IMG/VR virus record: IMGVR_UViG_3300024346_003797
Location: 13,091 to 77,090 of that record
DNA length: 64,000 nucleotides
Reading direction: 5' to 3' (one strand)
Origin: a virus
Shown here in pieces: positions 13,069 through 59,086 of this stretch (its first letter is position 1; each line of letters begins with the position of its first letter). A program made the translations under genes and the position numbers. The notes beneath the pieces were generated by a model. That model did not search any database. It was not told where the DNA came from and saw nothing but the letters and a program-made list of their open reading frames with translations.

Positions 13069-13091
13069 CTATATAACCTTAGAGAGAAATA

Positions 13092-25000: not shown

Positions 25001-28000
25001 TAGTGAAAGAATATCTAGTTCTAGTATTGGGTTACAATCAACACAACCACCAATTGATACAATTTTAGCAAGTGCTCAAGGTGCAGTGTTTGAAGTAGAA
25101 GGTGTTACGAATGACCAAACACTAGTGTGGAGTTCACGTACACGTAATGTCACACAAACTGTTGCATCTACTGATATCATTACTATTGAACCATCAACAG
25201 GTGGTGCACCAGACGAAGGTTTTGTAGGACCAACAACTGGCTTCTATGTTGATATGCCAGTTAAATTCCAAGGCGCAGTTGGCGCAAGTAATATAGTTAA
25301 CGGTACAACATATTATATAAAATCTATAATTAATGAAACTGATTTTACTATATCTGCAACTGTAGGTGGTGGATTATTTGCATTAGGTAATGCGACTATC
25401 AGCACAGCCGGATTATTGATGTATATAGGTGAAGTTACAAATACTGCGGTAGTTACACTATTCTACCCTGGTATATTAACTGCAACAGCTACTACCGCTA
25501 CTACTAATACAATATCAGTGCCGACAGTTGGTACTAATAATTTAGGTGGCACTAGTGGATTCTATCCTAATTTACCAGTATTCTTTACAGGAAATGTGTT
25601 TGGCGGTGTGATTGAAAATGAAACTTATTATGTAACAACTGTTATAAATGATGAGACATTTACAATGTCTACTAAAACTGACGCATTAACCATTAGTGTT
25701 AACTCAACTTCTGCAACAGGTAATGTTATCAACTGCACAAGTAGTGTTGGACTTTCTATTAATGACCCTATCATCTTTACTGATATATCAGTGGTATCGG
25801 GTACAACAAATATTGTTGCAGGAACAACTTATTATGTAAGTGCGATAACTTCTAACTCACAGTTTGTAATATCTAGTGTAGTTAACGGTGGACCATTTAA
25901 TCCCGGTACTAGTACTAGTACGATGACAGGTGTGGATCAAAAGGATATTGTACAATTAACAACTACAACCGGATCAATGACATGTAACGTTGGTTTACCA
26001 GTAAGTCCAGGACAAGTTACCGGACAACAGTTTACGTTCTATCCAACATCAACTACAACTGAAACAGTTACTGGAACTAACGGTAATCTAGTTGTAAGAA
26101 CAATAGATAATGCGCTTGCAAATGGAGATTATTTAAGTGTTACTTCACTAAGCGGTGGATTAACTAATATGTATATTAATATGCCAATCACTGTTGCTAG
26201 CAACTACGGTGGTTTAATAGGTGGTACTACATATTACATAAACGAGTTAGGCATTGTACAAAATGATGTAATTGCTACTACTGCTGGTAACTTACTAACA
26301 TGTACTAGCACAGCAGGTTTCTATGATGAAATGCCAATTATATTCAGCGGTACTGCATTAGGCGGATTAGTATTAGATACACTATACTATGTTATTGGAT
26401 CTTCTATTACTAGTACGCAGTTTAAAATATCAGAAACTGCAGGAGGCAGTGAAGTTGATTTGACTAGCGATAGTGGTGCTACTATGACTGCAACTGGTCA
26501 ACCATATATTAAGGTATCAGCTACTAAAGGTGGAGGTGTATTCGCATTAACCAATGCAACAACTACGGTAGTAATGACACAAGCACCCACAGCAGTACCT
26601 GAATTTGATGTAAGTTGGGTATTAGGTGGATATACAATAAGCATAAACGATCCAGGTGAAGGATACACACTAGATAATACTATTACTATTTTAGGTACTG
26701 ATTTAGGTGGAACAACTCCAGCTAATGATTTGGTTATGACAGTTAATACTATTGACACTATAACTGCAAATCCAAATAATGAGTTCTTACCATTAGAATC
26801 TAATGGCTCTATTGAGTCAGTTATTGGTTCAGGAACACCTAACGCTACTGTAACACAATATTACTTAAAGGTTATATCTGCGTCAGAGTGTGAAGTATAT
26901 AGTGATCCTTTATTACAGATACCCGTAAGTGGAATAAACTTCCCTTATACTACCGGTGATTATACATTACTTCCAGAACCGTTCTACTTCAATCAAAGCA
27001 TTGTAAAATACAATAACAATGTATATCAATGTATTGTAAGTAACAATGATGATGAGTTTATATTTGGTAAATGGGAGTTGTTATTAAGTGATAGTAGAAA
27101 ACTAAATGCGTTAGATAGAATTGTTGGTTATTATCAACCAACAGTAAATATGCCGGGATTAGATTTAACACAGTTAGTAGATGGAATTACATATCCAAAT
27201 AGTACATATATGGGTAATGCATTTGCCCCTAATGATGAATATACATTGGACACTATATTACAAGACCAACAGTTTAATCCAACAGCAGTTAATACTACTG
27301 CAGTAGTTTGGAATGGTACAAGATATATTGCTGCCGCAAACACACCTGACTATTCCGATATTATTACAAGTGATACAGGTAGTACATGGGATTTTAATCA
27401 AATATCATCACAACCGATAGGATTGTCTGACATAACTTATTCTGGTACAAAATATGTAATCAGTTCTACTAATATAGCAACTCCTATATTAATAAGTGAT
27501 GACGGAGATACATGGACTACTACTGGATTGGCAGCTAATACTGTATCAGTTACTAGTACTAGTTTAAATAGCGTTACATATCTAAATGGTTTATATATGG
27601 CAGCCGGTGATATTATTGTATCAAGTTCGGATGCATATACATGGACAGAAAGATATAGATTTACTAACTCTGTATTATATGGAATACAAGGAATTGATAT
27701 CAATAACTTTACTGGATTTATTGCGGTAGGTTATGGTCCTGACTATAGTGTTATCCCGACAATAACTCAATCGGTTGTATTACGAAGCGTTAATGGTACT
27801 GTATGGAATAATGTAACTCCATCGGGTTCAGCAGAAACAATGTATGGAGTAACTAGTGGCAATAACATTATTGTTATAGTTGGCGACAATGGTACTATCT
27901 TTACTAGTGTGAATGGTAGTAATTGGGTTGATACAAGTACTGGTAGTGACAATTTAAGAGATGTGGTATATTCTGACAGCCTCGGACTATTTGTTGCAGT

Positions 28001-30806
28001 TGGACAATCAGGATCTGTTTTAACATCATCAGATGATGGTGCTACTTGGACATCACAAACTTCAACTACAACTGAGAATTTAAATGGTATCATTTGGAAT
28101 AGTGATGCCGAAGAGTTTATTATAACTGGTGAAAACAACGTTGTACTACAGAGTTCAGATGGAATAACTTGGACAAGTACAAATATATTTGTTACATTAC
28201 CTACAGTGTATGATGTTCAAGGTGATGCATTTACTGCAGGTTATGGTCCAGAAGAACTTGTACCAGGTGTAGTTACTGATAATCTAACTATGGTTGTAAC
28301 AACACGTCCGGGAACAAACTGGGATGTAGAAACATATCAACATGTTGGATATAACGTAGTATCTTCTGAGATAACTCCAATTGGATTAACACAAGTATTG
28401 TTTAGCTTTGATGGATTAGTACAAACTCCTGCACAAATATCTGTATTCCAAATTGATAGTGCGACTGGTTTAGCGACAAGATTGTATGAACCTGATGCAT
28501 TCACTATTGATTGGATAACAAAAACAGTTGAATTAACTACTGCATTACCTGCAGGTGATAAGTTAATGATTGATGTTTATGAAGTGGGCAACGGCGATCA
28601 ACTAGAAAAATCTAACTCACAGACTGATCCTATTAGACTAAACTCTACTACTGGATTTAATGAGATTTATTTAAACTGCAATTATAGTGCTACAATCAGT
28701 GCTGGGTCTGGAGTAGTAAGACCAGGCACACAACCAATACATGTTATAGCAACGGAAACTGATAGTACAGATGATACTATATTATGTGAAAATGTTGTTA
28801 ACTTCACATTAAACGACCAAATAATATTTGGAGGTGATGTTTTTGGTGGTATTGTAGCAGACACACATTATTATGTTAAAACTATAAGTGAAGTAACCAA
28901 TAAAATTACTATTTCAGATACAATAGTAACAGGTGTTGCAGGCCCGGCATTTGCACTAACATCTGATGTAGGTTCTATGGATGTAATAATAGAAACCGGC
29001 AGTGGTACATATTGGACTGATCCTATTGTATATTATAATGGTAATAAACTTGTATCAGGTAACACAGCCCGTGTAATACAAACTATTAGTAGCACCAACA
29101 GTATTGTATGTAATTCAACTGATGGTATATCAGTAAATGAGACTATCGTGTTTAGTGATACTATGTTTGGTAATGATATCACTCCTCAAACGGTATATTA
29201 TATTAAATCAATAATTGATGGTAATGAATTTACGATTTCTGAGACAAGCGTTGCAGGTGTACCTGGACCAGTACTTACACTAAGTGATGCAGTCGGTGGC
29301 GCACTAGGAGTCACCAATGATTATGCATTGGGCATAGCAGATAATGGCATTTCAGCAAAAATGATTTTTGCGGCACAATATGATGATACAGTGGATTATT
29401 TAAATTACACAGTATTTGGAGAAACTTTCCCAAGTCAGTATGGATATACTATACCTGAAACACAATTGTTTGAAGGAGACGGGACAACTGATACATTTGT
29501 ACTAGATAATTATGTAGGCGGTGATAATCCGTTGAACGCAATAGTAGAAATTAATGGATTACGAGTGGATCAAGGTGTATCTACCTATACTATATCATTT
29601 GGGCCTGACACAATTGTATTTGACACAGCACCAAGTAATGGTGATATTATTTCTGTAACTAGTTATAATTTAACTGATCGACAGTATTTTAATACACAAT
29701 ATGGCTTGACCGGCGAAACGGTTTCTGCCATAACTTACATTAATAATGCCACTACACCAGTACAGGTCACTACTACAACTGCACATGGTTTAACTACAGG
29801 TAATATTGTAAGAATAGACGGTGTACAAGGTTCAGTACAATTAAACAACAATACATACTATGTTGATGTTATAAGCACTACTGTATTGGATTTGTATTAT
29901 GATGACACCTTACTTGATCCTGTTATTTCAGTATCATCATATACAGGTGGTGGATATGTTTGGTTAGATGAAACATTTACCGTAGATAGTGATTGGGAAC
30001 AAGATAATGTTGACAGATTATGGGTAACAATTAATGGTTATCGTGTACCATCAAGCTCATTATATTTGAATGCCAATAACAATCTAAGTATTTTAGCTCC
30101 AGTAGATAGTGCAGATAGCATTACTATTACTAGTATGATGCCAAGTGCAACCCCTAATCAACTGGTATATTTACAGAATGTTAATAAGACTAACACGCCG
30201 TCGGTATATAGAGCGAACACTAATACTAGAACATGGTTAGTTGCCCCATTGTATAATACTGACAATACAATCTATGTAGCAGATGTTAGTCGAATTACTG
30301 ATACAATAATACAAGCTGTAACTGTACCGGCCGCAGTAGATGGTATTACTACTATTGGACTGACAGCAGATAAAAACATTATTTCTCAAGTTATTGTGTA
30401 TAATACCACAACTAGCACTTATGTAAGTTCTACTAATTATAGTATAGTAATTCAAAACTTAGCGCCAGTATTGCAAATAACTGCCGGAGTAACGGTGGGA
30501 GATAGCATAGTGATTACTACGATTGAGGGGAATTTAATATATCTTAATGGAGAACAGATTAGATTTACTACAGTAGACTTAAATGCTAATACATTAAGTG
30601 GGTTGCAACGAGGCACAAATGGTACAGGAATATTGACTTATATACCGGTATATAGCGAGGTATATGGAATATTATCCAATAACATGTTACCTAGTGTAAA
30701 TTACAATTTGACTTGGAATAGCAATATTTACAATGTATCTCAGGGTGATCCGTTGCAGATTAGTGAGACTAATGCCGCAATATTCTTAAATACGGACATA
30801 TCTTAA
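13092..30806 (+). CDS. giant (5904 aa) modular baseplate/virion protein in the gp7 position
   Basis: Uninterrupted ORF after gp6; FG-GAP-like repeats, repeated beta modules and an Asp-box propeller. Confidence 0.7.
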   Translation: MATRIRTLNFLPEIFKTTTNSQFLNATLDQIVDQPNVKRIEGYIGSRFGYGVNAKNYYVTEPTKTRTDYQLDPGVVFLKKDTNTAQDFISYPGIIDGLELEGAVVNNNNRLFTSQFYSWDSFTDLDKIINFNQYYWIPEGPDAVTVSTETVYNATDYIVTSTSNGYLITADGASQGSINPSITLLRGGTYRFSVNQNSQFWIQGMPGVTGYDPAQPNVQTRDVLGVDNNGTEVGVVTFTVPFKNAQDEYNFPGNNRVDVVSTLAFDDVNGVLVSSLTNGIDGITSLEGLTLMFYNTGSPSVIEAGSFIVGNTYKINTIGTTDFTLIGATSNTVGVSFIATGIGTGNGSANSLTGYVSKFYDTTPFDEDGGSSYTPPGDSLNFANFEGGYYTDIASTFYTVTYEGDPSDPVIRLVEAGTIPVEERITANYGQEFIGRSFYLNTSDTIILIPYLSAILDTLYYQDGTSGNKVGQIRLIASNTTNRIDVDTDIIGKKNYTSPNGVVFTNGLKVIFSGEIYPTSYENIRYYVEGVGTAIQLVPVTDLVAPEPFTSGTYIPFDTTPYDIGNFDSNLYVPVTPDYITIARNSIDKNPWSRSNRWFHIDVITATATYNSNPGLVTLYATANNKAKRPVIEFYPNLRLFDAGVVGKAPIDFIDFRTTDALNQVAAQENYYPDVEVYTTYTGTINGVTGTSTTVTILANNVTGAFQVGQYINDSTNILPRNSQITNISGTTTLTLTVEWLGSQTIGSTSVASLIANDNQNDEYALFDGARVVFAADNNQDVKNKIYVSRFSTLTEGGTPVITLTEAEDGLVLPDEQTVAFRGFNYQGMDFYFDGIDWIEGQQKTTVNQPPLFDIFDENNISFGNSDVYVGTSFTGNKLFAYGLGIGSDDPVLGFPLQYSSIDNVGDISFDVSLNSATFNYVSGTTPITQKVNTGYVYNYTDLITSIRQLGWQTAIAPSVQYQIFEFDYFASNPTSTFTCDIAKLADSDSAWPTIQVFVNNQIQDTSNYTVTTTSSQTIVTLAVPNPLIDTVVEISVLSDQVSETAYYGIPINLNNNPLNADVTNVNVGDIRGQYQSSFYNNPNTTGEVFGPNNYRDLGNMVPYGNRIIQNSASLVLPGAFLRKQNHNLFNALLYNSREYITFKTLLVDTVNNTEYNVYTSPSTMLDDALDQITKSKSDSNSFFWSDMLPSKAAYITNTYSFANALDVSIYPLSKVYNFDTANYNGVLVYLTTSAGITSQLIRNVDYTVSSTSPSLTVTLDLAPGDQITIKEYNQTYGSYVPNTPTKLGLYPATIPAVVLDINYNQPTYFIVGHDGSYNKLYGDYIDGRLIDFRDQVLLEYETRVYNNLKLSNVIPIQAYEVMPGFFRDTDYSYDEILEIYSSSFLNWVGQNRINYKKQFYNTNNEYTYNYNVSGNKINREVIPQGYWRGIYEYFYDTSNPDTYPWEMLGFTDQPTWWQTRYGPAPYTSDNLVLWNDLAQGIDWNNGNPVVIPKAVRPQLLQVLPVDSAGNLVSPFVSIVGNYSNTSFNRDWKVGDVGPAEFSYRRSSSWPFDLMRILALTKPAEFFNLGVDVDNYKYNEEFNQYLVNNRSHLVISDVEIYGNGIAKTSYINWVVDFEKQVGIDATTNITELLDNIDVRLVYRVAGFSDKNLLKFYVEKSTANSNNSSLLIPDESYQVLLYDNQPFDRITYSGVVIQLTDQGYYKVYGNSQTNAYFNVLLPKINGRYERVSVQGLSVQLATDYYSNPTLVAYGTEFYNVQEVAQFLESYGRYLASQGVLFDQIESGLEVSWRQMVAEYLYWAQTGWESGSIVNINPAASFLSINKDSYIVQPLTLQQQNFVLNQNLYPIQSTDLSIVRDGTLFSAQPLNQGDTIAYGQFNISNFEHGIVFDNVTLFDDVIYNLTTGLRQNRINVRGTKTADWNGTVDAQGFILNQDNILDWSKEVKYTTGSIVKYKNKYWIAITIIQAKAVFDEREWKETDYNEIQKGLLPNTSTRSYESTLYYDVNRANLENDADLLSFSLIGYRPRNYLALADLTDITQINVYKNFIKNKGTMNAVSAFKGANLPQGGIDYDVYENWAIKSGEFGGVLNSNFIDFKLNETLLTGNPSIVGLTNGVSTDGVQQEVPLYSIYNYGRPINSTTVLPTLPTDTPSTLFPYAGYANFNDMRIAAYYYFNLANSTSPSGEVVPLARLYVGQYVWIADYQGTWQVMTPISLGAIIFAKNNLNGTATITFSTPHGLTKYQPFAIVNFNDSLNGYYVATTIVDPNNIIVNVTLDPAITTITGQGVGFRFQSQRVDNPSDIINLPLLNNEFVKNKVWVDTNTDGSWAVYRKSINYAYDSELVKDGSETFGSAVAYTDSLGYLVGDADAGVVYRYSFNDLFNQYLLTQTLTQTSSFGTTIAYADDIFVISQPTGASTVYIYQLVVNTTVDALQSFQTAITAPGGVTEWGRAIAISGDKNWLYISAVTSSASLVYVYQLSAVTDEYELSTTIDFGLPNTDNFGYSLATDYYGDTIIIGAPTKQYDSSTSNWGYTYVYDRTVQNDEAQYTSLPDVPQTFAMAWTPSTTTITATASDAGTDRFTCADSSSLVVGSPIVFTGTVYGGVSLNTVYYILAKPTGTTFTISTERSGTILPLSTDTGSMSVVQQNDSLLVNVNGTLITDNNYSIIGSTFNVYSSLNAGDIVTISGNNFVLAQTLTTETTPRIGVQFGTSIDTTTYATEILVGAPFEINSQNQEGAVYRYTNGGSKYGMVIGTSNCAITTSRTILINGYMVVLPAGNATTSATAINQSNITNVYATALDGKLIISLIDNALALVNDKLNITSLATATWAELGFNQYTQTQVINDPHVQGTTQFGNVVKFNEFDSFIVSAPTATRYEATTFDASDDDNYDNDTLFDNNATQWVDTYRNAGAVYMFDYLGVYNETLANCGNFVYAQSVNDINETFGSQPMYGHALEFNASQVVIGTPDFKPDTVAGQIVTYTNATGATDWSVYRSSSPVVDIDRIQNIQLYSALTNNTLDNLDYIDPLQGKILGSVRQNIDVVSNADPAGYNSPNKPLGTIVWGAAQVGQLWFNTSTTRFVNYHQNDVVYDSKWWGQVFPGSDVTVYSWITSNVPPALYTGPGTAYDIDSYAIEYMLNSTGVLTPVYFYWVRNTNIVFTKTGKTLSDSIIQMYITSPINSGISYFAPLEQGIYALYNCGENINGTDTVLHIGYSTGTNDDTSHSVYNLIRTNYADDFLPGLPEVSHTHTINHGTNNTTTGIPESLYDRMLDSLCGVDESGGVVPDPYLPKPVQSGIYARPRQSFFVNRFLALKNYLTYANEVLAQYPITETRNASFLNAKNPTIIETIVAGNCQANTIYTIVTVGDVDWTSIGASSNTVGVTFTATGPATGSSRNTGTASFLAFTEGAKYNTPDYWSYINWWATGYDNNTKSALQVPIYADLATVDASPGLIVTVTANGDGKSETYVYTNLGIWERIGLQDGTIAFDSSLWDYKTARLGFGDNFFDTTPYDLYPSQETRNITRALNEEIYTNELLIFRNKSLILLFEYIQSETIESQNYLPWLNKTSFIDVAHTIRDLRPIEVYQSDNQDFLSGYINEVKPYHVVIKEFLFKYTGTDVYAGIITDFDLPAQYNTSVEQFITPELVYANPSSANQYLPTDPIWQTAPYSEWFNNYGLSITGVNNYQITVLASYISLNAGSFAVDNAYGFPINGTILIGDELIGYSSVDRSNNTLTGLTRGVDGTPITAHIPGEIISMDLPAVLLLDGGRGYTEPPRITAYIDTTIYPEPRRPAVLQAVMSLDSILSVNVIDPGDGYAVLPQIIIDPSILIPFTANNVDTLTSTIALPAPLLQTGDLVKYTVGASTTAVGGLDTDQYYYVGVLESTPTFNIALYTTYRDAVNDSDRVILFDAGTGNNNLLSVSARASCISTSIPIRENIITLRFDRTTYNSQVTDWQGGQFYGSFYAGLFNNSERISSSSIGLQSTQPPIDTILASAQGAVFEVEGVTNDQTLVWSSRTRNVTQTVASTDIITIEPSTGGAPDEGFVGPTTGFYVDMPVKFQGAVGASNIVNGTTYYIKSIINETDFTISATVGGGLFALGNATISTAGLLMYIGEVTNTAVVTLFYPGILTATATTATTNTISVPTVGTNNLGGTSGFYPNLPVFFTGNVFGGVIENETYYVTTVINDETFTMSTKTDALTISVNSTSATGNVINCTSSVGLSINDPIIFTDISVVSGTTNIVAGTTYYVSAITSNSQFVISSVVNGGPFNPGTSTSTMTGVDQKDIVQLTTTTGSMTCNVGLPVSPGQVTGQQFTFYPTSTTTETVTGTNGNLVVRTIDNALANGDYLSVTSLSGGLTNMYINMPITVASNYGGLIGGTTYYINELGIVQNDVIATTAGNLLTCTSTAGFYDEMPIIFSGTALGGLVLDTLYYVIGSSITSTQFKISETAGGSEVDLTSDSGATMTATGQPYIKVSATKGGGVFALTNATTTVVMTQAPTAVPEFDVSWVLGGYTISINDPGEGYTLDNTITILGTDLGGTTPANDLVMTVNTIDTITANPNNEFLPLESNGSIESVIGSGTPNATVTQYYLKVISASECEVYSDPLLQIPVSGINFPYTTGDYTLLPEPFYFNQSIVKYNNNVYQCIVSNNDDEFIFGKWELLLSDSRKLNALDRIVGYYQPTVNMPGLDLTQLVDGITYPNSTYMGNAFAPNDEYTLDTILQDQQFNPTAVNTTAVVWNGTRYIAAANTPDYSDIITSDTGSTWDFNQISSQPIGLSDITYSGTKYVISSTNIATPILISDDGDTWTTTGLAANTVSVTSTSLNSVTYLNGLYMAAGDIIVSSSDAYTWTERYRFTNSVLYGIQGIDINNFTGFIAVGYGPDYSVIPTITQSVVLRSVNGTVWNNVTPSGSAETMYGVTSGNNIIVIVGDNGTIFTSVNGSNWVDTSTGSDNLRDVVYSDSLGLFVAVGQSGSVLTSSDDGATWTSQTSTTTENLNGIIWNSDAEEFIITGENNVVLQSSDGITWTSTNIFVTLPTVYDVQGDAFTAGYGPEELVPGVVTDNLTMVVTTRPGTNWDVETYQHVGYNVVSSEITPIGLTQVLFSFDGLVQTPAQISVFQIDSATGLATRLYEPDAFTIDWITKTVELTTALPAGDKLMIDVYEVGNGDQLEKSNSQTDPIRLNSTTGFNEIYLNCNYSATISAGSGVVRPGTQPIHVIATETDSTDDTILCENVVNFTLNDQIIFGGDVFGGIVADTHYYVKTISEVTNKITISDTIVTGVAGPAFALTSDVGSMDVIIETGSGTYWTDPIVYYNGNKLVSGNTARVIQTISSTNSIVCNSTDGISVNETIVFSDTMFGNDITPQTVYYIKSIIDGNEFTISETSVAGVPGPVLTLSDAVGGALGVTNDYALGIADNGISAKMIFAAQYDDTVDYLNYTVFGETFPSQYGYTIPETQLFEGDGTTDTFVLDNYVGGDNPLNAIVEINGLRVDQGVSTYTISFGPDTIVFDTAPSNGDIISVTSYNLTDRQYFNTQYGLTGETVSAITYINNATTPVQVTTTTAHGLTTGNIVRIDGVQGSVQLNNNTYYVDVISTTVLDLYYDDTLLDPVISVSSYTGGGYVWLDETFTVDSDWEQDNVDRLWVTINGYRVPSSSLYLNANNNLSILAPVDSADSITITSMMPSATPNQLVYLQNVNKTNTPSVYRANTNTRTWLVAPLYNTDNTIYVADVSRITDTIIQAVTVPAAVDGITTIGLTADKNIISQVIVYNTTTSTYVSSTNYSIVIQNLAPVLQITAGVTVGDSIVITTIEGNLIYLNGEQIRFTTVDLNANTLSGLQRGTNGTGILTYIPVYSEVYGILSNNMLPSVNYNLTWNSNIYNVSQGDPLQISETNAAIFLNTDIS
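27300..28200 (+). repeat. Asp-box/BNR repeats (SxDGxTW), predicted beta-propeller
   Basis: TSDTGSTW, SDDGDTW, SSDAYTW, SVNGTVW, SVNGSNW, SDDGATW, SSDGITW. Confidence 0.75.
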
Positions 30807-48332: not shown

Positions 48333-51300
48333 ATGATTAGAGATGTATTTTATTACGGTAATAAACCCAACGCACACCCAAGAGAAAAACACGCAATTGA
48401 TTTAGCCGATGCTAGAAGTCAATGCACTACTGAACATTTTTGGATAATCAACGAATATTGCGACTACACAAACTTTGATTGGGATTGGGATTTTGACTTT
48501 CTACCCGATGAAGATGTGTGGGCTGAAGAACACAACAACGTATGGCCCAGTAGCTATCAAAAAGATAGTGGTACTTGGTTATGTTCAGAACAAGACAGTC
48601 AAGTAATTATCTATCGTGCAGATGTGGATCCTGTATCATTAAAAGATATTATATCAGGTAATTGGAAAATCATTGAAGCAATAGACATGCCATCGTTTGA
48701 TTTTAAATGGCACCCTGATCCAACTGAGGATCCCTACATATACGTATTTGGTAATCAATGGTATTCTGGTATGATAATGCCTACAGTAGAATATCATGTT
48801 CCCGGGGCAACAAATAGAAAATACCTAACAGATAAGATAGCGCAACTGTTGCCTATACCTGAACTGTTTGATACGATACATGAAACATTAGACTTTGATT
48901 ATAGCTGGAGACCAGACCCAACTAGCCCACCATATACCTATGTGTTTGGTAATACTCAGTACCCAAGTAGTGTAATGCCAACTATAGAGTACACTGTTGA
49001 GGGCGCAACTGAACGCAAGTTCATCGAACAGATTACACCTAAGCTAAAACCTCAACAACATAAGTTTAATATATTAGAAATTATAGATAGAAACAAGTTT
49101 GACTTTAGTTGGGTACCAGATCCAACTAGCCCTCCTTATATCTATGTGTTTGGTAATACTCAATACCCGGGTACTATAATGCCAACAATAGAATATACTG
49201 TTGAAGGTGCAACAGAACGTAAGTATGTAGATAATATAGTTGCACATTTATTACCAATGCAATCAGTATTCAATACGATATATGAAACATTAGACTTTGA
49301 TTATAGCTGGAGACCAGATCCAACTAGCCCACCATATATCTATGTGTTTGGTAATACTCAGTATCCCGGTAATATTATGCCGACCATTGAATATGTAGTA
49401 GAAGGTGCAACAGAACGCAAGTATATAGATGATATTGTTCCTAACTTAGCACATCAGCCACACAAGTTTAAACTACTAGAAGATATTGATACTACTAAGT
49501 TTGACTTTAGTTGGGTACCAGATCCAACTAGTCCTCCGTATATCTATGTATGGGGTAATCAATGGAATAAACCTGAGGATAAGATTAGTGTGCAGTATGT
49601 TGTTGAGGGTGCGACTGAATACAAGTATATGGAACAACGTGCTACCCGTAAAGCATGTACTGACAACTGGCAGACACCTGGTTATGTAATACAGAACAGC
49701 TTTGATTATAGTTGGGAACCTAATCCAAATGATAATCCATATATCTATCAATTTGGTACACAATGGCAAAAAACAGGCGGCCCTAAGTATATAGTAGAAG
49801 GCGCTACCGAAATCAAGTATGTAGATGTTATTAAAGCAAGTATTGTACCGTGGCAGTTTAAGAACTGGTTAATACCTAGAAATATAGAACAAACTAGTTT
49901 TGATTTTAGTTGGCATCCCGATGATACAGAACCAAACTATATCTATCAATTTGCTAGTCAATGGAGTAAATCGGGCGGCCCACGGTTCTCTATGCCAAAC
50001 GCAACAGATGTTAAGTATATTGATTTTCCTATAGCAGTAGCTAAAACTGATATGACACACTGGTCTATACCTGCAGGATTAGATACTAGTGAGTTTGATT
50101 ACAGTTGGCATCCTGATATTGAAGACGAACCCTACATCTATCAGTTTGGAACACAATGGCAAAAGACAGGCGGCCCTGTATTTACTGCACCATTATGCAA
50201 TGAAACAACTCCTGTCAAGTATGTTGATATAACAAAAGCAAAAATGTTACCTAATGATAGTAACTGGGTAACACATGAAAACATAGTTGATTTTGATTAT
50301 AGTTGGCACCCAGACTCTACTGAACAACCCTATATCTATCAATTTGGAACACAATGGCAAAAGACAGGTGGTCCGTCATATGTAGTTGGGGGTGCTACTG
50401 AAATCAAGTACGTAGATGTTATAACAGCAAATGTATCAGTTACAACTAAAAATTGGGTAACACATGAGGAAGTTATTGACTTTGATTACAGCTGGCATCC
50501 AGATAGTACTGAACAACCCTATATATATCAATGGGGCAATAAACATTATGGCAGTGATTTACAGCCCACAATAGAATATATTGTACCCGGTGCAACACAA
50601 ATCAAACATATGTCGCAAGATGTTAACCTATCAGTAAGTGACAAATGGATTGAACATTATGATATTGACAAAACTAAATTTGACATGTCATGGAGACCTG
50701 ATCCAACTAGTCCTCCGTATATCTATATATGGGGAAATAAACACATTGCTCCTGAACTTAAATCTACCGTTGAGTACCATGTTGAAGGGGCTACTGAGAT
50801 TAAATACATGCCGGAGCGATTGGCAGTGTTGCCAGAGTTTGATAGATGGCATGAAATACAGCTAGTTGATAGAACTAAGTTTGATTTGACATGGAGACCT
50901 GACCCACGTGAGCCTGATTACATTTATGTATGGGGTAACAAGTGGATAGCAGGAGAATTAGAATCAAGTATAGAATATCATTGCCCCGGCGCAACTGAAA
51001 AGAAGTATATGGAAACTCTTGTTGATGTTTTACCTCAGCAAGAACGATGGAATATAGTACAAAAACCATCTGATTTTGATTATAGTTGGAGACCTGACCC
51101 ACGTGAACCTGCATATATCTATGTGTGGGGGAATAAACATATTGCAGGTGAACTTAAACCAACTGTTGAGTATTATTGCCCTAACGCAACAGAGCGTAAG
51201 TATATGGGTGACATAGATGTTGCACCTGAAATGGATCGATGGAACATAGTACAAGACGTTACCGAATCATTTGATTTGACATGGAGACCTGACCCACGTG

Positions 51301-54300
51301 AACCTGCATATATCTATGTATGGGGTAACAAATATATATCAGGAGAATTGAAAGCAACAATTGAATATCATTGCCCTGATGCCACTGAACGTAAGTATAT
51401 GGGTAATGCAGAAGTAATACCTGAATACACCAAGTGGAAGATAACACAAGACATTGATAAAACTAAGTTTGATTTGACATGGAGACCTGACCCACGTGAA
51501 CCTGCATATATTTATGTGTGGGGGAATAAACATATTGACGCAGAGTTAAAACCTACAATAGAATATTATTGTGAAGGTGCTACTGAACGCAAGTATATGG
51601 GTAACGTTGATGCATTGCCTGAATTTGACAAATGGGTAGAAGTACAACCTGTTGATAAAACTAAGTTTGATTTGACATGGAGACCTGACCCACGTGAACC
51701 TGCATATATTTATGTGTGGGGGAATAAGTGGATCCCCGGTGAGTTAAGGTCAACTATTGAATATCATTGTTTAGGCGCCATTGAGAAGAAGTATATGGGT
51801 GAAGCAGAAGTAATGCCCATTAGTGAGAATTGGAAGATTAATCAATCAGTAGATAACTTTGACTTTACGTGGCGGCCGGACCCTAGAGAACCTGATTACA
51901 TATACGTATGGGGTAACAAATGGATCTCAGGTGAACTTATGCCCACAGTAGAATACTACTGTTCTGGTGCTACTGAAAAGAAGTACATGGGTGAGGTAGA
52001 TGTTGCTCCTGAATGGGATAAGTATCAAATTCTTATTCCAATAGACAAAACAAGTTTTGATTTTAGTTGGAGACCTGATCCACATGAACCTGCTTTCATT
52101 TATGTGTGGGGTAATCAATCTAATAGTGCAGAGAAAGAACCAACAATAGAATATCATTGTGAGGGTGCTATCGAGCGTAAGTATATTACTGACACATTTG
52201 TAAAAACATTGCCTGTAGTTGAAAATTGGAAAATATTAATACCCGTTGACAACTTTGATTTTAGTTGGAGACCTGATCCTCATAGCCCGCCATTCATATA
52301 TGTATTTGGTAATCAATGGCACGATGCTACTACTGAACCTACTTTAGAATATCATGTAGATGGTGCTAAAGATAAAAAATTCGTTACTGATATAATTGCT
52401 AACGCAATACGCACACAAGAACATTGGAAAACATTAATACCAGTAGAGTCCTTTGACTACAGTTGGAGACCTAACCCACATTCAAACCCCTACATATATG
52501 TTTTTGGAAATCAATGGCATAATAGCATCAAAGAGCCTACAATAGAATATCACGTGCTCGGGGCAACAGATAAGAAGTACATAGACGATATACACGCAAT
52601 CGTTAAATCAACTGCAACAGATCCAAATTGGAAACGTTTAATACCTATTGAAACCTTCGATTACAGTTGGAGACCTGACCCAGGTAGTCCGCCATTCATA
52701 TACGTATTCGGTAACAAGTGGAATGACGCTACAACTGAACCATCAATTGAATATCATGTGCATGGTGCAACAGAGTACAAATATATTAATGATCCTGTTG
52801 CTACTCCTCAGGCTAACTTAGCTTTTTGGTCTATCAATAACAATGATGACTTAGAGACATTTGACTTCACATGGAGACCTAATCCACATAGCCCACCTCA
52901 AATATATCAATGGGCTGACAATGGTCCTCGATACACAATGCCTGATGCAACTGAAGTTGTGTTTATGGAACGTACAGTTGAAACACGCAAAACTGTAGTC
53001 AATCGTTATAAGATTAAAACCACACTTGAAGATTTGATATTAGAACATACAGAAGAAGTATTCTGGGCTATTAATCCTGATTTGAGTTATGACAAGTTTG
53101 ACTTTAGTTGGAGACCAAACGAAGAAAACTTCAGACACATAAACGTATTTGGTAACGAATACAGTATGAACACACAAACATACTATGTTAATGGACCATT
53201 GTATATGATGGGGCATAAAGAGTTTAACTACGTAGAAGGACAAACTGTAGAGATTGACAGTAATTTGTCAATGTTTTATATTGATAGGGGTAATAGTGAG
53301 AGTAATGATAGATTTACATTACTCAAAACAAGATATCCACAAATTCAAAAGACACGATACTTAAATACTTGGGTAGATACAATCAATCGTTGTATCAACA
53401 AATCACAAACTAAATTATGTTGGATATTAAATAGCGAGTTAGATTATAGTGAGTTTGACTTTGACTTCTACCCTAGCCCATGGCAAGAGAAAATGGTTCA
53501 TGTGTTTGGCACTCAGTGGAGTCATTGGGGAACTACATTTATGATTAACAAAGAAACATTTTCTGAAGATACAAAATATGTAAAAATTATTGAGCATTTA
53601 AATGTATTAAACTTTGTTAAGAGTAAGAGAACAGTTGCTAAAAACTGTTTATATGATATTATTCTTATTGACCACGGCAACAATCGTGCAACTGAGATTA
53701 ATGGCATACCTGTAACTATAATCAAGTACGAGCGTAGCTATTTGAATACGTTTAAAAAACTACTTTCTATACTTCCACAAAAGAATGAGCATTACGTTTG
53801 GATAACAAGTAGTGTGTGTGATTATAGTAACTTTGATTTTAGTTATATATGTGACCCGTATGCTAAGGATCAACTACATGTATTCCCCAGTGACAGACAG
53901 AAGTTTGGTGACACATTTTTAGTTGATGTGAATAAGTTAAGAACATTGATTGATAGTATGGTTGTATTAGAAGATTATAATAAGATAAACTTCAATCAGC
54001 ATTTGCGTACTAAACGGTTGGATCCTCCGTCAATCATAACCAATGATGATACTCATTGCACAAGTGTCGATACTGAGTTTAACTTCCCATATGCAATATT
54101 CACCACATATGATAATCAAAGTATTAAGGCAGTAGATACAGAGCCAATGAACTTATGGTCACCCAATACAAAAAATATCATTGTAACAAGTACAGGTGGA
54201 ACACGTATCATTGTACCCAAAGAAGCAAAAGAGTATGTTAAGAAAGAGTTATATGATTATCCCTATATCTCTAAGATTAATAAACAGTTTGCATCCAAGC

Positions 54301-54971
54301 CACTGGATATAGTCTTTTTAAGTAACGGAGAAACTGGTGCTGATAAGAACTATGAATATTTACTGAGTGTGACTAAAGGATTGCCTAATCGTGTTGTACG
54401 TGTAGATGGGATCAATGGTCGTGTTGCTAGCTATCATGCAGCCGCAAATATAAGTGAAACACCCTGGATGTTTACTGTGTTTGCTAAGTTACGTGTTAAT
54501 GATAAGTTTGATTGGTCATGGCAACCCGATAGATTGCAAGTAGCTAAACATTATATCTTCAATGCAACTAACCCTGTCAATGGATTGGTATACGGCCACC
54601 AAGCTATGATTGCATATAACAAAAAGATTACCTTAAATAATATTGGTAGAGGTTTAGACTTCACACTAGATGACGAGCATGAGGTCGTTGATATGAATAG
54701 TGGTGTAGCACTGTACAATACAGATGCATTTAGCACTTGGCGTACTAGTTTCCGTGAAGCTATTAAGTTACGTGCTGATAACAGTCAGGCAAGCAAAGAT
54801 AGACTAGATGCATGGTTAAATATCGGTGAAGGTGATTATGCCCAATATAGTTGTGAAGGTGCTCAACATGCTGTAGAATACTACGAATCAGTCAATGGTG
54901 ATTTAGATAAATTACGACTAAGTTATGATTGGCCTTGGTTGCAAGAGTATTTTAATGCTAAATACAATTGA
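48333..54971 (+). CDS. 2212-aa tandem-repeat protein with GT-A-like terminal domains
   Basis: 22 consecutive FD(F/Y/L)(S/T)WxP(D/N)...YIYx(F/W)G units plus degenerate copies. Confidence 0.85.
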   Translation: MIRDVFYYGNKPNAHPREKHAIDLADARSQCTTEHFWIINEYCDYTNFDWDWDFDFLPDEDVWAEEHNNVWPSSYQKDSGTWLCSEQDSQVIIYRADVDPVSLKDIISGNWKIIEAIDMPSFDFKWHPDPTEDPYIYVFGNQWYSGMIMPTVEYHVPGATNRKYLTDKIAQLLPIPELFDTIHETLDFDYSWRPDPTSPPYTYVFGNTQYPSSVMPTIEYTVEGATERKFIEQITPKLKPQQHKFNILEIIDRNKFDFSWVPDPTSPPYIYVFGNTQYPGTIMPTIEYTVEGATERKYVDNIVAHLLPMQSVFNTIYETLDFDYSWRPDPTSPPYIYVFGNTQYPGNIMPTIEYVVEGATERKYIDDIVPNLAHQPHKFKLLEDIDTTKFDFSWVPDPTSPPYIYVWGNQWNKPEDKISVQYVVEGATEYKYMEQRATRKACTDNWQTPGYVIQNSFDYSWEPNPNDNPYIYQFGTQWQKTGGPKYIVEGATEIKYVDVIKASIVPWQFKNWLIPRNIEQTSFDFSWHPDDTEPNYIYQFASQWSKSGGPRFSMPNATDVKYIDFPIAVAKTDMTHWSIPAGLDTSEFDYSWHPDIEDEPYIYQFGTQWQKTGGPVFTAPLCNETTPVKYVDITKAKMLPNDSNWVTHENIVDFDYSWHPDSTEQPYIYQFGTQWQKTGGPSYVVGGATEIKYVDVITANVSVTTKNWVTHEEVIDFDYSWHPDSTEQPYIYQWGNKHYGSDLQPTIEYIVPGATQIKHMSQDVNLSVSDKWIEHYDIDKTKFDMSWRPDPTSPPYIYIWGNKHIAPELKSTVEYHVEGATEIKYMPERLAVLPEFDRWHEIQLVDRTKFDLTWRPDPREPDYIYVWGNKWIAGELESSIEYHCPGATEKKYMETLVDVLPQQERWNIVQKPSDFDYSWRPDPREPAYIYVWGNKHIAGELKPTVEYYCPNATERKYMGDIDVAPEMDRWNIVQDVTESFDLTWRPDPREPAYIYVWGNKYISGELKATIEYHCPDATERKYMGNAEVIPEYTKWKITQDIDKTKFDLTWRPDPREPAYIYVWGNKHIDAELKPTIEYYCEGATERKYMGNVDALPEFDKWVEVQPVDKTKFDLTWRPDPREPAYIYVWGNKWIPGELRSTIEYHCLGAIEKKYMGEAEVMPISENWKINQSVDNFDFTWRPDPREPDYIYVWGNKWISGELMPTVEYYCSGATEKKYMGEVDVAPEWDKYQILIPIDKTSFDFSWRPDPHEPAFIYVWGNQSNSAEKEPTIEYHCEGAIERKYITDTFVKTLPVVENWKILIPVDNFDFSWRPDPHSPPFIYVFGNQWHDATTEPTLEYHVDGAKDKKFVTDIIANAIRTQEHWKTLIPVESFDYSWRPNPHSNPYIYVFGNQWHNSIKEPTIEYHVLGATDKKYIDDIHAIVKSTATDPNWKRLIPIETFDYSWRPDPGSPPFIYVFGNKWNDATTEPSIEYHVHGATEYKYINDPVATPQANLAFWSINNNDDLETFDFTWRPNPHSPPQIYQWADNGPRYTMPDATEVVFMERTVETRKTVVNRYKIKTTLEDLILEHTEEVFWAINPDLSYDKFDFSWRPNEENFRHINVFGNEYSMNTQTYYVNGPLYMMGHKEFNYVEGQTVEIDSNLSMFYIDRGNSESNDRFTLLKTRYPQIQKTRYLNTWVDTINRCINKSQTKLCWILNSELDYSEFDFDFYPSPWQEKMVHVFGTQWSHWGTTFMINKETFSEDTKYVKIIEHLNVLNFVKSKRTVAKNCLYDIILIDHGNNRATEINGIPVTIIKYERSYLNTFKKLLSILPQKNEHYVWITSSVCDYSNFDFSYICDPYAKDQLHVFPSDRQKFGDTFLVDVNKLRTLIDSMVVLEDYNKINFNQHLRTKRLDPPSIITNDDTHCTSVDTEFNFPYAIFTTYDNQSIKAVDTEPMNLWSPNTKNIIVTSTGGTRIIVPKEAKEYVKKELYDYPYISKINKQFASKPLDIVFLSNGETGADKNYEYLLSVTKGLPNRVVRVDGINGRVASYHAAANISETPWMFTVFAKLRVNDKFDWSWQPDRLQVAKHYIFNATNPVNGLVYGHQAMIAYNKKITLNNIGRGLDFTLDDEHEVVDMNSGVALYNTDAFSTWRTSFREAIKLRADNSQASKDRLDAWLNIGEGDYAQYSCEGAQHAVEYYESVNGDLDKLRLSYDWPWLQEYFNAKYN
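48690..52980 (+). repeat. in-frame tandem repeat, ~190-200 nt period, 22 units
   Basis: For example, identical 76-nt cores at 51454-51529 and 51652-51727. Confidence 0.9.
54939..54968 (+). promoter_or_regulatory. overlapping sigma70-like (TTGCAA-N18-TACAAT) and late (GCTAAATA, 54957-54964) promoters for tmRNA
   Basis: Embedded in the last codons of the repeat gene, just upstream of the acceptor piece. Confidence 0.5.
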
Positions 54972-55320
54972 AGTTATTGCTGTATGAAGCAAAGAGAAAA
55001 GGGTTCTGGACGCGGGTGCGAATCCCGCCAGGTCCACCATAAAGGAATATAATGGAAAATTTCAGCAAGTGGATAGTAATATTTGTTATTATGCTTTTCA
55101 TTTTACATGAAATGACAAGTTAGTTTCTTTATGATGGGCCTGATATAGATTCGACAGGGCAACAAGTAAATTAGTGGACAGCTCGGCAAAGCAGAAGCCG
55201 TTAGGATTGGGGTTACCCGATCGTAGAAGCAAAAAAAGTAACCGCAAACGACTCACAGTTTAGCATTGCAGCCTGATTAAGGCAGCTAGGGTAAGACATA
55301 CCTCGTAACAGAAACTCAAA
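54972..55320 (+). ncRNA. ssrA: circularly permuted two-piece tmRNA: acceptor piece to CCA 55039, intervening segment 55040-55135, coding piece from 55136
   Basis: T-arm GCGGG-TGCGAAT-CCCGC then CAGGTCC-A-CCA comes before GGGCCTG...GATTCGAC. 7-bp acceptor stem with G3-U70. Tag ANDSQFSIAA* at 55244-55276. Outer ends approximate. Confidence 0.92.
55052..55123 (+). CDS. 23-aa hydrophobic peptide in the tmRNA intervening segment
   Basis: AAAGGA SD, then MENFSKWIVIFVIMLFILHEMTS*. Confidence 0.55.
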   Translation: MENFSKWIVIFVIMLFILHEMTS

Positions 55321-55323
55321 ATT

Positions 55324-55343
55324 GGCTCTTCGGAGCCTTTTTT
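55324..55343 (+). terminator. intrinsic terminator
   Basis: GGCTC-TTCG-GAGCC followed by T6. Confidence 0.9.
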
Positions 55344-55354
55344 ACGGCTAAACA

Positions 55355-55370
55355 TGTGATCCTAATCACA
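55355..55370. promoter_or_regulatory. perfect CRP-type box TGTGA-N6-TCACA
   Basis: tgtga tcctaa tcaca, upstream of a sigma70 promoter. Confidence 0.55.
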
Positions 55371-56429: not shown

Positions 56430-56876
56430 ATGATAAAGTCTTTGTCCTGGCATACTATAGAGTTTATTTGGCAAACTCATCTATGGCCTGATCGTGTCTC
56501 TAAAATTGAACCAAACAGTGCAATGTCATATAAATCAGGTTATGATATGTACAATATGAATACTATACCATCATTTTTTGGATACTACATTAATGATGAC
56601 TTAGTTGGAGTAAATAGCGGACATAGTTGTTCAGATAACATGTACCGTTCTCGTGGCTTGTGGGTTGACCCTAACCATCGAGGTAAAGGTATAGGTAAAC
56701 AGCTTTTAGTTGAGACAATAAATCAAGCTAACCGTGAAGATGCTAGAATGATATGGAGTTTTCCTAAACGTACTAGTTGGAAAACATATAACTCAGTTGG
56801 ATTTGAGTTAACAAGTGATTGGCAAAGCTCAGAAACTAGTAATGAAAATGCTTATTGCATATTGGAATTAAAATGA
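56430..56876 (+). CDS. GNAT-family acetyltransferase
   Basis: Motif A LWVDPNHRGKGIGKQLL; YNSVGF. Confidence 0.88.
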   Translation: MIKSLSWHTIEFIWQTHLWPDRVSKIEPNSAMSYKSGYDMYNMNTIPSFFGYYINDDLVGVNSGHSCSDNMYRSRGLWVDPNHRGKGIGKQLLVETINQANREDARMIWSFPKRTSWKTYNSVGFELTSDWQSSETSNENAYCILELK

Positions 56877-57499: not shown

Positions 57500-59086
57500 A
57501 TGAAATACCTATTAGATTTTAAAAATAACACCTCTGACGCAGATATTCAGCAATATTGCACAGACCATAATATAACTGTTATTAAACAGTTTAACAAATT
57601 GGGTTTGGTATATGAAGTATCAGCAGATGTTGAGCCACCGATAACAGCTATCATTGAATATGTTATTAATGATGAACATGCTCCTATCTCTTTGTTAAGC
57701 CGTGACACCGTTAGCTTTGATTCCGCAACAGATACTAACTGGTGGAAAATGGCTACGTTAGATTTGCATGACTACGATACACCAGTAGTTACACATAGAG
57801 TAAACACAAAAAACATGAATGTTTATATAGTTGATAGTGGAATTACTGCATCACATCCTGAGTTTGTGGGTGTGCCGGTAGAAAACATTTATAGTTATGA
57901 TGGTACATTTGATGATATTAATGGTCACGGAACTGCTATTGCCAGTATTATTTCAGGGAACACTTGTTCAGTAAGTAATGCTGATTTAAAAATCGTAAAG
58001 ATATTTGGTGCTACACCTACATTACAGAGTCATCTATTGGCAGCGTTTGATGCTATCATTACACATGCCGCAACAACTCCGTTCCCATCAATTGTTAATT
58101 TAAGTTGGATTATTGATAAGAATCAATTTATTGAATCTAAGATTCAAAAACTTATTGACAACAATATTGCAGTAGTTTGTTCTGCTGGTAATTCAGGTAC
58201 ACCTATTCCAGATGTAACACCAGCATCTATGTTTGATGTTATTACAGTTGGTGCATATGGACAAGATTTTGAGCCATGTGATTTCTCTAACTATACAGGT
58301 AGTGGTATTACTAATACTAGTAGTGCGGTTAATCATGGTGCTATAGACATGTGGTCTCCTGGCATTGATATTTTAGCAGCCAACATTGATGGTTCATATC
58401 ATATTGTATCTGGTACTAGTATTGCAACAGCGATACATAGTGCAACATTAGCATTTGTATTTGGTATAGAGTTTAGTGGTGATAACCCTGAGTTTGTATT
58501 AGCTACTAATAGAATTCAAAACTTAATATCTATACCCATAAACCAAAAAGGTGCAGGATCATATAGAAAAAATGTATTGACATTAGAAGGTGTCTATGCT
58601 GAATCTGTAAATAGAATGTCAACTATTCTATCTAAGCCGGAAGTTACTAACCGTTATGCATTTGACTTAACAACAAGTAAGATTGTAAATGAACCTATCT
58701 GTGAGTTCTTATTCTTACAGCTATATGTAACAAACTGTACAGTAGACAAAGCATTACCTACTGGATTGCAAATTATTGATGGACATTTGACTGGTACAGT
58801 TGATCCTGCATATTTAGAAGGTGCATCGTACAAATCCTTTAAGGCACAATGTGAGTTACAAACTGTAACAGGTGATACTACTTCATTAGAAATAAATCTA
58901 TTATTAAAGATTAGTGAAGAAATCGATTTGGATCCAGTGGATGATCCTGAAATAATTGTATTCTTGCAATCAGGTCCAGGATGTCCAAATACTTTTGTTT
59001 GTCCTGAAAATCCATGTACAGGTCCAGTTTATAAACTGACACAATGTAATGACCCTTCAATTAGCGGGCAATGTAACTGTTTTTAA
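57500..59086 (+). CDS. subtilisin-like S8 protease: prodomain, catalytic domain, Ig-like domain, Cys-rich tail
   Basis: IVDSG, HGTAIAS, SAGN, SGTS catalytic motifs; no signal peptide. Confidence 0.9.
   Translation: MKYLLDFKNNTSDADIQQYCTDHNITVIKQFNKLGLVYEVSADVEPPITAIIEYVINDEHAPISLLSRDTVSFDSATDTNWWKMATLDLHDYDTPVVTHRVNTKNMNVYIVDSGITASHPEFVGVPVENIYSYDGTFDDINGHGTAIASIISGNTCSVSNADLKIVKIFGATPTLQSHLLAAFDAIITHAATTPFPSIVNLSWIIDKNQFIESKIQKLIDNNIAVVCSAGNSGTPIPDVTPASMFDVITVGAYGQDFEPCDFSNYTGSGITNTSSAVNHGAIDMWSPGIDILAANIDGSYHIVSGTSIATAIHSATLAFVFGIEFSGDNPEFVLATNRIQNLISIPINQKGAGSYRKNVLTLEGVYAESVNRMSTILSKPEVTNRYAFDLTTSKIVNEPICEFLFLQLYVTNCTVDKALPTGLQIIDGHLTGTVDPAYLEGASYKSFKAQCELQTVTGDTTSLEINLLLKISEEIDLDPVDDPEIIVFLQSGPGCPNTFVCPENPCTGPVYKLTQCNDPSISGQCNCF

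Follow-up and report, generated by a model that had tools for sequence, protein, structure and literature searches.

Does the intervening segment of a permuted phage transfer-messenger RNA (tmRNA) gene hold a gene of its own? The question is raised by a 64,000-nt stretch of DNA from a freshwater phage (IMG/VR record IMGVR_UViG_3300024346_003797, positions 13,091 to 77,090), here called the window and numbered from its first base, in which a short open reading frame (ORF; 55052-55123, + strand) lies between the two pieces of such a tmRNA gene. The first-pass annotation of the window proposed that this ORF encodes a membrane peptide, that its Shine-Dalgarno sequence (SD) is locked in the processing stem, and that the locus is a dual-output RNA gene. 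Comparing the locus with its relatives, we found that the ORF is, judged by its pattern of substitutions, a real and evolutionarily selected gene, and the dual-output proposal is well supported at the comparative level by selection on the ORF, covariation of the stem and the presence of real genes in the same slot of related phages. We consider it likely that the intervening segment is a small protein-coding cassette within the tmRNA gene, operating through the mechanism described below, and the throw-away part of this stable RNA very probably works as a messenger as well. Two-piece tmRNAs of aquatic phages are known already; a full-text literature search returned no account of a selected protein gene in the spacer of one.

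The gene at 54947-55367 is a circularly permuted two-piece tmRNA gene (Rfam RF04321), the one permuted tmRNA in the window (ARAGORN, tag ANDSQFSIAA). The RF04321 match at 54978-55276 spans the full model (1-213) at 107.2 bits, well over the gathering score of 47 (E 6e-20), and a search of the whole record returns the same match. Its acceptor piece lies upstream of its coding piece, the order on which membership of RF04321 depends. The 77-kb IMG/VR contig to which the window belongs is rated 22% complete by CheckV, so its source is a large phage.

Purifying selection on the reading frame

The features that carry the argument are the following.

55040-55135 (+): intervening segment (spacer), 96 nt, between CCA and G1; boundaries from acceptor-stem pairing
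55052-55123 (+): ORF from ATG to TAG, 23-residue hydrophobic peptide (translation; 13 variants; grand average of hydropathy 1.19)
55038-55048 (+): 5' arm of the precursor stem, containing the SD AAGGA at 55042-55046
55123-55133 (+): 3' arm of the precursor stem, its first base being the last base of the stop codon

The limits of the spacer follow from the positions of CCA (55037-55039) and G1 (55136). As first proposed, the ORF occupies the loop of the stem and encodes the predicted peptide followed by TAG, and the AAGGA lies inside the stem, 5 nt before the ATG; the stop codon (55121-55123) adjoins the 3' arm. Among composition-matched shuffles of the 96 nt, 0.3-0.8% contain a closed ORF with SD and ATG that is 23 codons or longer. 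The peptide has a polar N-terminus, a very hydrophobic core of 11-15 residues and a short polar tail, a layout like that of small membrane proteins; the mean hydropathy of its 11-residue core is 3.8, and a Pfam search with the 23 residues found no domain.

Relatives were gathered by three patterns, namely a spacer-neutral T-arm, the two stem arms, and the start of this spacer, the last being run on metagenome and viral contigs. The spacer of the window (WIN-type) was found at 20 loci in 13 distinct variants, all in frame. There are no indels in the ORF among these variants, the single length change being one base between SD and ATG, and the stop codon varies only from TAG to TAA. Variable sites fall at codon positions 1, 2 and 3 in the ratio 7/1/15 (chi-square ~12.9, p ~0.002, by hand calculation), and the Nei-Gojobori method gives a proportion of nonsynonymous to synonymous differences (pN/pS) of 0.28 and a corresponding substitution ratio (dN/dS) of ~0.23, compared with a pN/pS of 3.4 in the +1 frame control. 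The replacements are conservative (exchanges among I, V, L, M and F, plus E/D, N/K, H/N and S/T). Thus, SD and ORF are both kept in homologs, as the first-pass annotation had asked to be checked, and the ORF is under purifying selection, which implies that the phage benefits from the peptide. The codon pattern is not accounted for by RNA structure, since all changes in the predicted inner hairpin of the spacer are one-sided; for the same reason (wobble changes only, zero compensatory pairs) we do not claim that hairpin as a conserved element.

The peptide occurs in phages whose downstream neighbour proteins are 80-94% identical, and two loci with a neighbour 86% identical (L144, L145) hold a 19-residue hydrophobic peptide in the slot instead. 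Three loci (L079, L124, L134) have a 214-215-nt spacer in which a gene for a 36-residue membrane protein comes first, followed one base past its stop by a second ORF of 25 residues, MENLAKF plus a hydrophobic core, that terminates 13 nt before G1. BLASTP gave no alignment between the window peptide and the second ORF of L079; a composition-preserving shuffle test of the same pair gave p = 0.0004, and the 25-residue peptide is probably a distant homolog. The same test was not significant for the peptides of L117 and L038.

Upstream, the TAA of a 22-codon ORF (54984-55052, +) that crosses the T-arm and CCA overlaps the peptide's ATG (TAATG). Stop/start overlaps of this kind (TAATG or TGATG) occur in about half of cargo-bearing spacers. 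Translational coupling from ATG 54984 was considered and set aside, the overlap being found in 18 of 36 spacers with an upstream ATG and in 10 of 21 without.

The precursor stem and the tmRNA gene around it

The proposed pairing of 55038-55047 with 55124-55133 holds as ten base pairs with one G.U (C55038-G55133 and then, by last digits, A39-U132, U40-A131, A41-U130, A42-U129, A43-U128, G44-C127, G45.U126, A46-U125 and A47-U124), to which RNAfold adds U55048.G55123 for an 11-bp stem. It does extend the acceptor stem, on which it is stacked, with a C.A mismatch and the pair A55036-U55135 in between. The fold energy of the 120-nt region is -39.3 kcal/mol (z = -5.4); none of 200 shuffles is as stable.

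In the unbiased sample gathered by the T-arm pattern (39 unique spacers), the stem keeps a fixed register, with a median of 11 contiguous bp beside the acceptor stem and the second C of CCA paired with the antepenultimate base of the spacer. The 21 distinct arm pairs of this sample have 93% of their stem cells paired, compared with 70% (maximum 81%) in 1000 shuffles of partner arms, and double-sided changes are seen in 68 stem cells across relatives, so the predicted stem covaries in homologous phage tmRNAs. Consistent with this, closing-arm changes in WIN-type spacers, from TTTCTT to TTCCTT, TTCTTT or TTTTTT, still pair with AAGGAA. Moreover, the arms are complementary only as + strand RNA, through G.U pairs (three in the common type), a sign that selection acts on the transcript. 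In gene-bearing spacers, these comparisons indicate, the two arms of a pre-existing stem have come to include the ribosome-binding site (RBS) and the end of the gene.

The remaining parts of the gene are as follows.

54939-54968 (+): predicted sigma-70-like promoter, TTGCAA, 18 nt, TACAAT; 9/12 consensus matches; adjoins the tmRNA gene upstream
54978-55039 (+): tmRNA acceptor piece (RF04321 alignment, ARAGORN, sequence)
55012-55028 (+): T-arm (RF04321 alignment, sequence)
55029-55035 (+): 3' acceptor strand CAGGUCC, pairing with 55136-55142
55036 and 55037-55039 (+): discriminator A and encoded CCA (sequence)
55136-55323 (+): tmRNA coding piece (ARAGORN, RF04321); 3' limit set only by the adjoining terminator
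55136-55142 (+): 5' acceptor strand GGGCCUG; G3.U70, the alanine-identity G.U pair, is G55138.U55033
55244-55276 (+): tag reading frame ANDSQFSIAA plus stop, Ala-Ala end (ARAGORN, RF04321)
55324-55343 (+): predicted intrinsic terminator, GGCTC-TTCG-GAGCC then T6; closes the transcription unit

The predicted promoter and terminator flank acceptor piece, ORF and coding piece as one unit, and relatives of the window tmRNA have TATAAT at the promoter position. A promoter-like match within the spacer (55107-55135, 9/12) is no better than in shuffles.

Two-piece tmRNA genes are known in aquatic phages, namely the OM43 phage Melnitz and pelagimyophages (PMC9004378), and permuted tmRNA genes occur in Alpha- and Betaproteobacteria and cyanobacteria (Rfam RF04321 and RF01849; PMC11915505). 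The window gene shares with them the order acceptor-intervening-coding, the G.U tRNA-like domain, the encoded CCA, the tag frame and the phage setting; it differs in that its intervening segment encodes a protein under selection, with RBS and stop forming part of the precursor stem. In the descriptions read, the intervening sequence is treated as discarded RNA (PMC9004378, PMC11915505), and the 2025 tmRNA database paper lists a tRNA-Ala gene and a repetitive element among its oddities and no spacer ORFs (PMC11915505). A full-text literature search found no description of ORFs in tmRNA spacers. Some tmRNA group I introns carry homing-endonuclease genes (PMC11915505) and so also place a protein ORF in a gene part that is absent from the mature RNA. 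Those introns are self-splicing, sit in the T-loop and carry selfish nucleases, whereas the window insert sits between CCA and G1, the locus has no intron or ribozyme family match in Rfam, the cargos of the slot are small and diverse, and removal would be by tRNA-end processing.

The window has a G+C content of ~36% and contains giant ORFs, among them 13092-30806 (+), 5904 codons. The tmRNA gene follows an ORF of 2212 codons (48333-54971, +) whose product has no Pfam hit and whose C-terminal 500 residues are 48-89% identical beside the tmRNA gene in many related phages. Downstream lie genes for a GNAT acetyltransferase (56430-56876, +; PF00583, E 9e-10) and a subtilase-family protease (57500-59086, +; PF00082, E 2e-15).

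The spacer as a slot for small genes

Related phages hold many different small genes in the same place. Parsing of 140 loci gave 97 unique spacers, a sample enriched by design for SD-bearing spacers, and 66 of the 97 have an SD arm (TAAGGAA or TAAAGGAA, right after CCA). In 61 of these 66, an ORF of 15 codons or more begins at a start codon 2-8 nt after the SD arm; L083 and L098 were later judged not credible, which leaves 59 credible unique ORFs in at least 32 unrelated families, with more than 50 spacer types between near-constant arms. Most slot ORFs stop 1 nt before G1, or 12-13 nt before it as in the window, and a minority stop farther upstream or continue past G1. In the 1-nt class the stop is the TGA in TTATGAT directly before GGG, and the closing arm encodes Val/Ile-Ser-Leu-stop. 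Two cargos pass Pfam cut-offs, one a GNAT acetyltransferase and the other a thioredoxin (PF00085, E 4e-21), and the larger cargos include proteins of 104-133 residues. Small membrane-type peptides make up six or seven of the 32 families, and most cargos of the stem-closed slot are soluble, ordinary-looking proteins.

In the unbiased sample, a full SD and ATG ORF is present in 4 of the 39 spacers (the window, L014, L045 and L028), while in L038 the ATG ORF is preceded by a weaker arm, AAGAA; 10 of the 39 encode an Oxidored-like four-cysteine domain (PF09791, E 1e-11), 8 of a different lineage encode a conserved peptide with the motif TEREW, and 16 have no ORF. Several of these types were observed more closely. 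The Oxidored-like spacers, with the motif CCxxGCxxCVW (115 nt; L010:789-1001 (+), L005:7814-8020 (+) and eight more), form two subgroups whose differences from each other are mostly synonymous. There is no start codon inside the spacer; the open frame extends back to an ATG at -56, located in the acceptor piece shortly past TATAAT, and continues via T-arm and CCA into the coding piece. The second tmRNA lineage has the acceptor strand CATCTCC (L004:2046-2270 (+), L053:4141-4380 (-), L025:4003-4380 (-)) and 76-232-nt spacers without a closing stem, and the frame of its peptide (...PRNLF[FY]TEREW..VGWG.VP...) continues into the 5' acceptor strand of the coding piece. L135 (243 nt after CCA, to the contig end) has a cargo ORF of ~75 codons that ends in ESL and TGA at the usual place; ATT rather than ATG, GTG or TTG follows its SD arm, and this cargo may use a non-canonical start.

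The spacer might instead be RNA only, a processing hairpin in which an ORF and an SD-like AAGGA arose by accident in an A/U-rich stem-loop. ORF-less relatives do share the stem, the inner part of the spacer is able to fold, and the arm generally begins with (T)AAAG, from which AAGGA is one or two changes away. Moreover, L083 and L098 (93-98-nt spacers) have an SD-like arm, TAAGGAAT, with no credible ORF behind it, and their interiors are richer in G+C and have the look of structured RNA. Such accidents would not be expected to produce the 7/1/15 codon bias or a dN/dS of 0.23 when the shifted frame gives a ratio above 3, and the predicted inner hairpin lacks double-sided compensatory change. 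An SD plus an ORF of this size is expected by chance in under one in a hundred shuffles, yet 61 of the 66 SD-bearing spacers have an ORF in place, some encoding Pfam-confirmed enzymes. We therefore regard an RNA-only spacer as highly improbable.

Some cargos also appear to be shuffled. Two-gene and tandem cassettes were found (L139 with 376 nt, L114, L089/L141 and L079/L124/L134), and the RBS arm moves with the second ORF; in the tandem cassettes of L139 a closing arm (...GTTTCTTTA) is joined directly to an RBS arm (ATAAGGAAGTTTTATG...). The same gene for a 36-residue membrane protein has one distal peptide gene as its partner in some phages and another in others, which by sequence comparison is modular shuffling inside the slot. 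The tmRNA gene lies just downstream of homologs of the 2212-residue protein at loci with many different cargos.

The spacer could also be a tolerated insertion site for passengers, with flanking tmRNA homology aiding exchange and the placement of signals in the stem having no regulatory meaning. The 32 ORF families and more than 50 spacer types between near-constant arms, the shuffled partners, and the different cargos at one genomic position downstream of a giant protein gene all fit this proposal, as does a backbone tree that requires 9 changes of the WIN-type cargo, of which well-supported branches force at least 5. However, an approximately unbiased (AU) test leaves a single origin of the WIN-type carriers unrejected (p = 0.34), and we do not claim exchange of this cargo. 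The peptide is under purifying selection, SD and stop placement is strict in 61 of 66 spacers, and arm complementarity that exists only as RNA points to selection on the transcript. A mere passenger is thus quite unlikely, although a passenger-cassette origin is compatible with a protein-coding cassette that works as a messenger. Cassettes of another kind are known in T4-type phages, where PeSL promoter/stem-loop cassettes shuffle small ORFs (PMC2839356, PMC4122927). Conserved short flanks around highly variable small phage ORFs, suggesting modular exchange, are common to both; PeSL elements are promoter-terminator motifs in intergenic hyperplastic regions, whereas here an RBS arm and a stop arm, with no promoter, lie within a tmRNA gene.

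Searches of cultured phages did not extend the family. Megablast of 19 kb against them gave no match, distant searches matched only the T-arm/acceptor region of tmRNA and returned no isolate with an SD-ORF spacer, and a scan of a genome collection, with a pattern that was too short, gave random matches with no tmRNA among the matches listed. Annotation of such loci is uneven. In Xanthomonas phage BUDD (ON758385.1, locus L393, 551-871) a 'hypothetical protein' coding sequence is annotated over acceptor piece and spacer and no tmRNA is given, which is probably a mis-annotation, and Stenotrophomonas phage records carry overlapping tRNA-Leu and tmRNA annotations.

Proposed competition of translation and maturation on one transcript

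RNA libraries contain the spacer. An 85-nt contig from one freshwater run covers 54972-55056 with 0 mismatches, starting in the acceptor piece and reaching the ORF; the spacer is spanned by two 131-nt contigs (55027-55157), each with nine differences that match known variants, and in a second freshwater study a 193-nt contig (54967-55157) bridges acceptor piece, spacer and coding piece. The upstream coding sequence at 54700-54937 is uncovered in the first run. Summed contig depth is 10-35 in the spacer against 257-303 and 146 in the flanks, which also collect relatives. These contigs are a weak hint that a spacer-containing precursor exists as RNA. In metatranscriptome run X1, two contigs (depth 35) pass directly from 55042 to 55128 and so omit 85 nt; they most likely come from relatives with another spacer, the content between the joined ends being unread, and a spacer-less RNA form is the less likely source.

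The predicted cost of opening the RBS, computed over -10 to +6, depends on the processing state.

Full precursor: 12.0 kcal/mol
After an RNase P-type cut only: 8.0 kcal/mol
Excised spacer: 7.4 kcal/mol
Spacer trimmed to the stop codon: 1.2 kcal/mol

Because of this dependence, ribosomes would load mainly during transcription, when ~85 nt remain before the closing arm exists, or after that arm is lost, and the folding model makes coupling of peptide synthesis to tmRNA maturation plausible. Under the proposed mechanism, a single transcript would run from the promoter at 54939-54968 to the terminator at 55324-55343 and contain acceptor piece, 23-codon gene and coding piece, the gene encoding a hydrophobic peptide that is probably inserted into the membrane. 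The 11-bp helix that extends the acceptor stem has the SD in its 5' arm and the stop abutting its 3' arm; once formed, it would sequester the RBS, leaving the precursor translationally silent and committed to maturation, in which host RNase P would cut at G55136 and 3'-end enzymes after CCA55039. A ribosome terminating at TAG 55121-55123 would melt the closing arm and delay maturation of that molecule, so that translation and tmRNA folding would be mutually exclusive on any one molecule. We tentatively propose that the RBS/stop helix acts as a switch, making the pre-tmRNA first a messenger and then a stable-RNA precursor, with ribosome traffic gating maturation. If so, the host tRNA-processing machinery would dose or time a membrane peptide here and, in relatives, the products of dozens of exchangeable small genes.

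Several points weigh against a translated, stem-gated cassette. Spacers without an ORF retain the stem with its covariation, including those of the cultured Stenotrophomonas phage Marzo and Xanthomonas phage BUDD, and the stem thus belongs to the tmRNA precursor independently of any gene; it probably serves primarily in folding or processing of the precursor, with SD occlusion a consequence or secondary use that may even be incidental. The WIN-type family was partly retrieved with a pattern containing the SD, so SD conservation is partly by design, though the SD is also kept in loci found by the closing-arm pattern alone and in RNA contigs. The transmembrane-like stretch proposed at first stands as a hydrophobic core of 11-15 residues, but is short for a classical transmembrane helix. 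Translation of the ORF is suggested by sequence comparison, and 23 hydrophobic residues would be hard to detect. The RNA data are assembled metatranscriptome contigs whose ends are unreadable, whose gaps in depth are not evidence and in which DNA carry-over is possible, and the opening costs describe an isolated RNA at equilibrium.

The peptide could also be functionless and its ORF regulatory, with translation of the spacer holding the helix open and tuning pre-tmRNA maturation to ribosome availability. The stop abuts the closing arm and in most relatives lies inside it, and a terminating ribosome would, from its known footprint, melt the helix that RNase P needs; such a device would link the ribosome-rescue RNA to the supply of free ribosomes. 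However, both the amino-acid sequence and the hydrophobic character of the peptide are under selection, a thioredoxin or a GNAT protein in the slot makes no sense as a leader peptide, and ORF-less spacers mature without such a device. A purely regulatory mini-ORF accordingly seems improbable to us.

By analogy with type I, hok-like systems, the product might be a membrane-damaging toxin whose mRNA is inert through end pairing and is freed by processing or trimming, and such a toxin could serve to time lysis or to shut down the host. In favour are the small size and hydrophobicity of the peptide and the end-to-end sequestration of its SD, for which trimming of the 3' arm lowers the predicted opening cost from 7.4 to 1.2 kcal/mol; in addition, six or seven of the 32 cargo families are small membrane-type peptides. 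On the other side, the hydrophobic stretch is short, most stem-closed cargos are soluble ordinary-looking proteins, which means that the lock is not specific to toxins, and no antitoxin RNA is apparent; a consensus scan of the minus strand in and beside 55040-55135, a weak test, found no promoter-like site. A toxic role is possible by resemblance, and we consider a locked toxin unlikely.

Parallels exist for parts of the protein-coding cassette that we favour. In tRNA-mRNA co-transcripts cut by RNase P and other enzymes, such as the E. coli tRNA-tufB operon, the T4 tRNA cluster and mitochondrial tRNA punctuation, the messenger is likewise bounded by tRNA-type processing sites. Here, in contrast, both tRNA-like ends of one RNA pair across the messenger, which places the message in the loop of a stem needed for maturation. 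In dual-function RNAs such as SgrS/SgrT, RNAIII/delta-haemolysin and SR1/SR1P, one transcript also gives a functional RNA and a small protein, as predicted here, but a single mature molecule does both jobs, whereas the coding part in the window is a piece excised between the halves of a stable RNA. The hok mRNA is subject to fold-back inhibition by pairing of its 5' and 3' ends. Common to hok/sok-type mRNAs and the window locus are a small hydrophobic peptide, an SD occluded by end pairing and predicted activation when the 3' end is removed; the window differs in having no evident antisense RNA and in a lock that is an extension of the acceptor stem and also closes genes for soluble proteins. 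The term fold-back inhibition is used in PMC3562002.

The intervening sequences of tmRNA genes have been treated as waste and are ignored by annotation pipelines, and ORFs of this size, placed within an RNA gene, are below the limits of gene callers. Should the spacer be a messenger, phage tmRNA genes would be compact two-product units in which small phage proteins, membrane peptides in many cases, have so far been hidden. An RBS and a stop in the processing stem offer a testable model in which translation and RNA maturation compete on one transcript, and an expression cassette gated by processing could be modelled on this simple natural arrangement.

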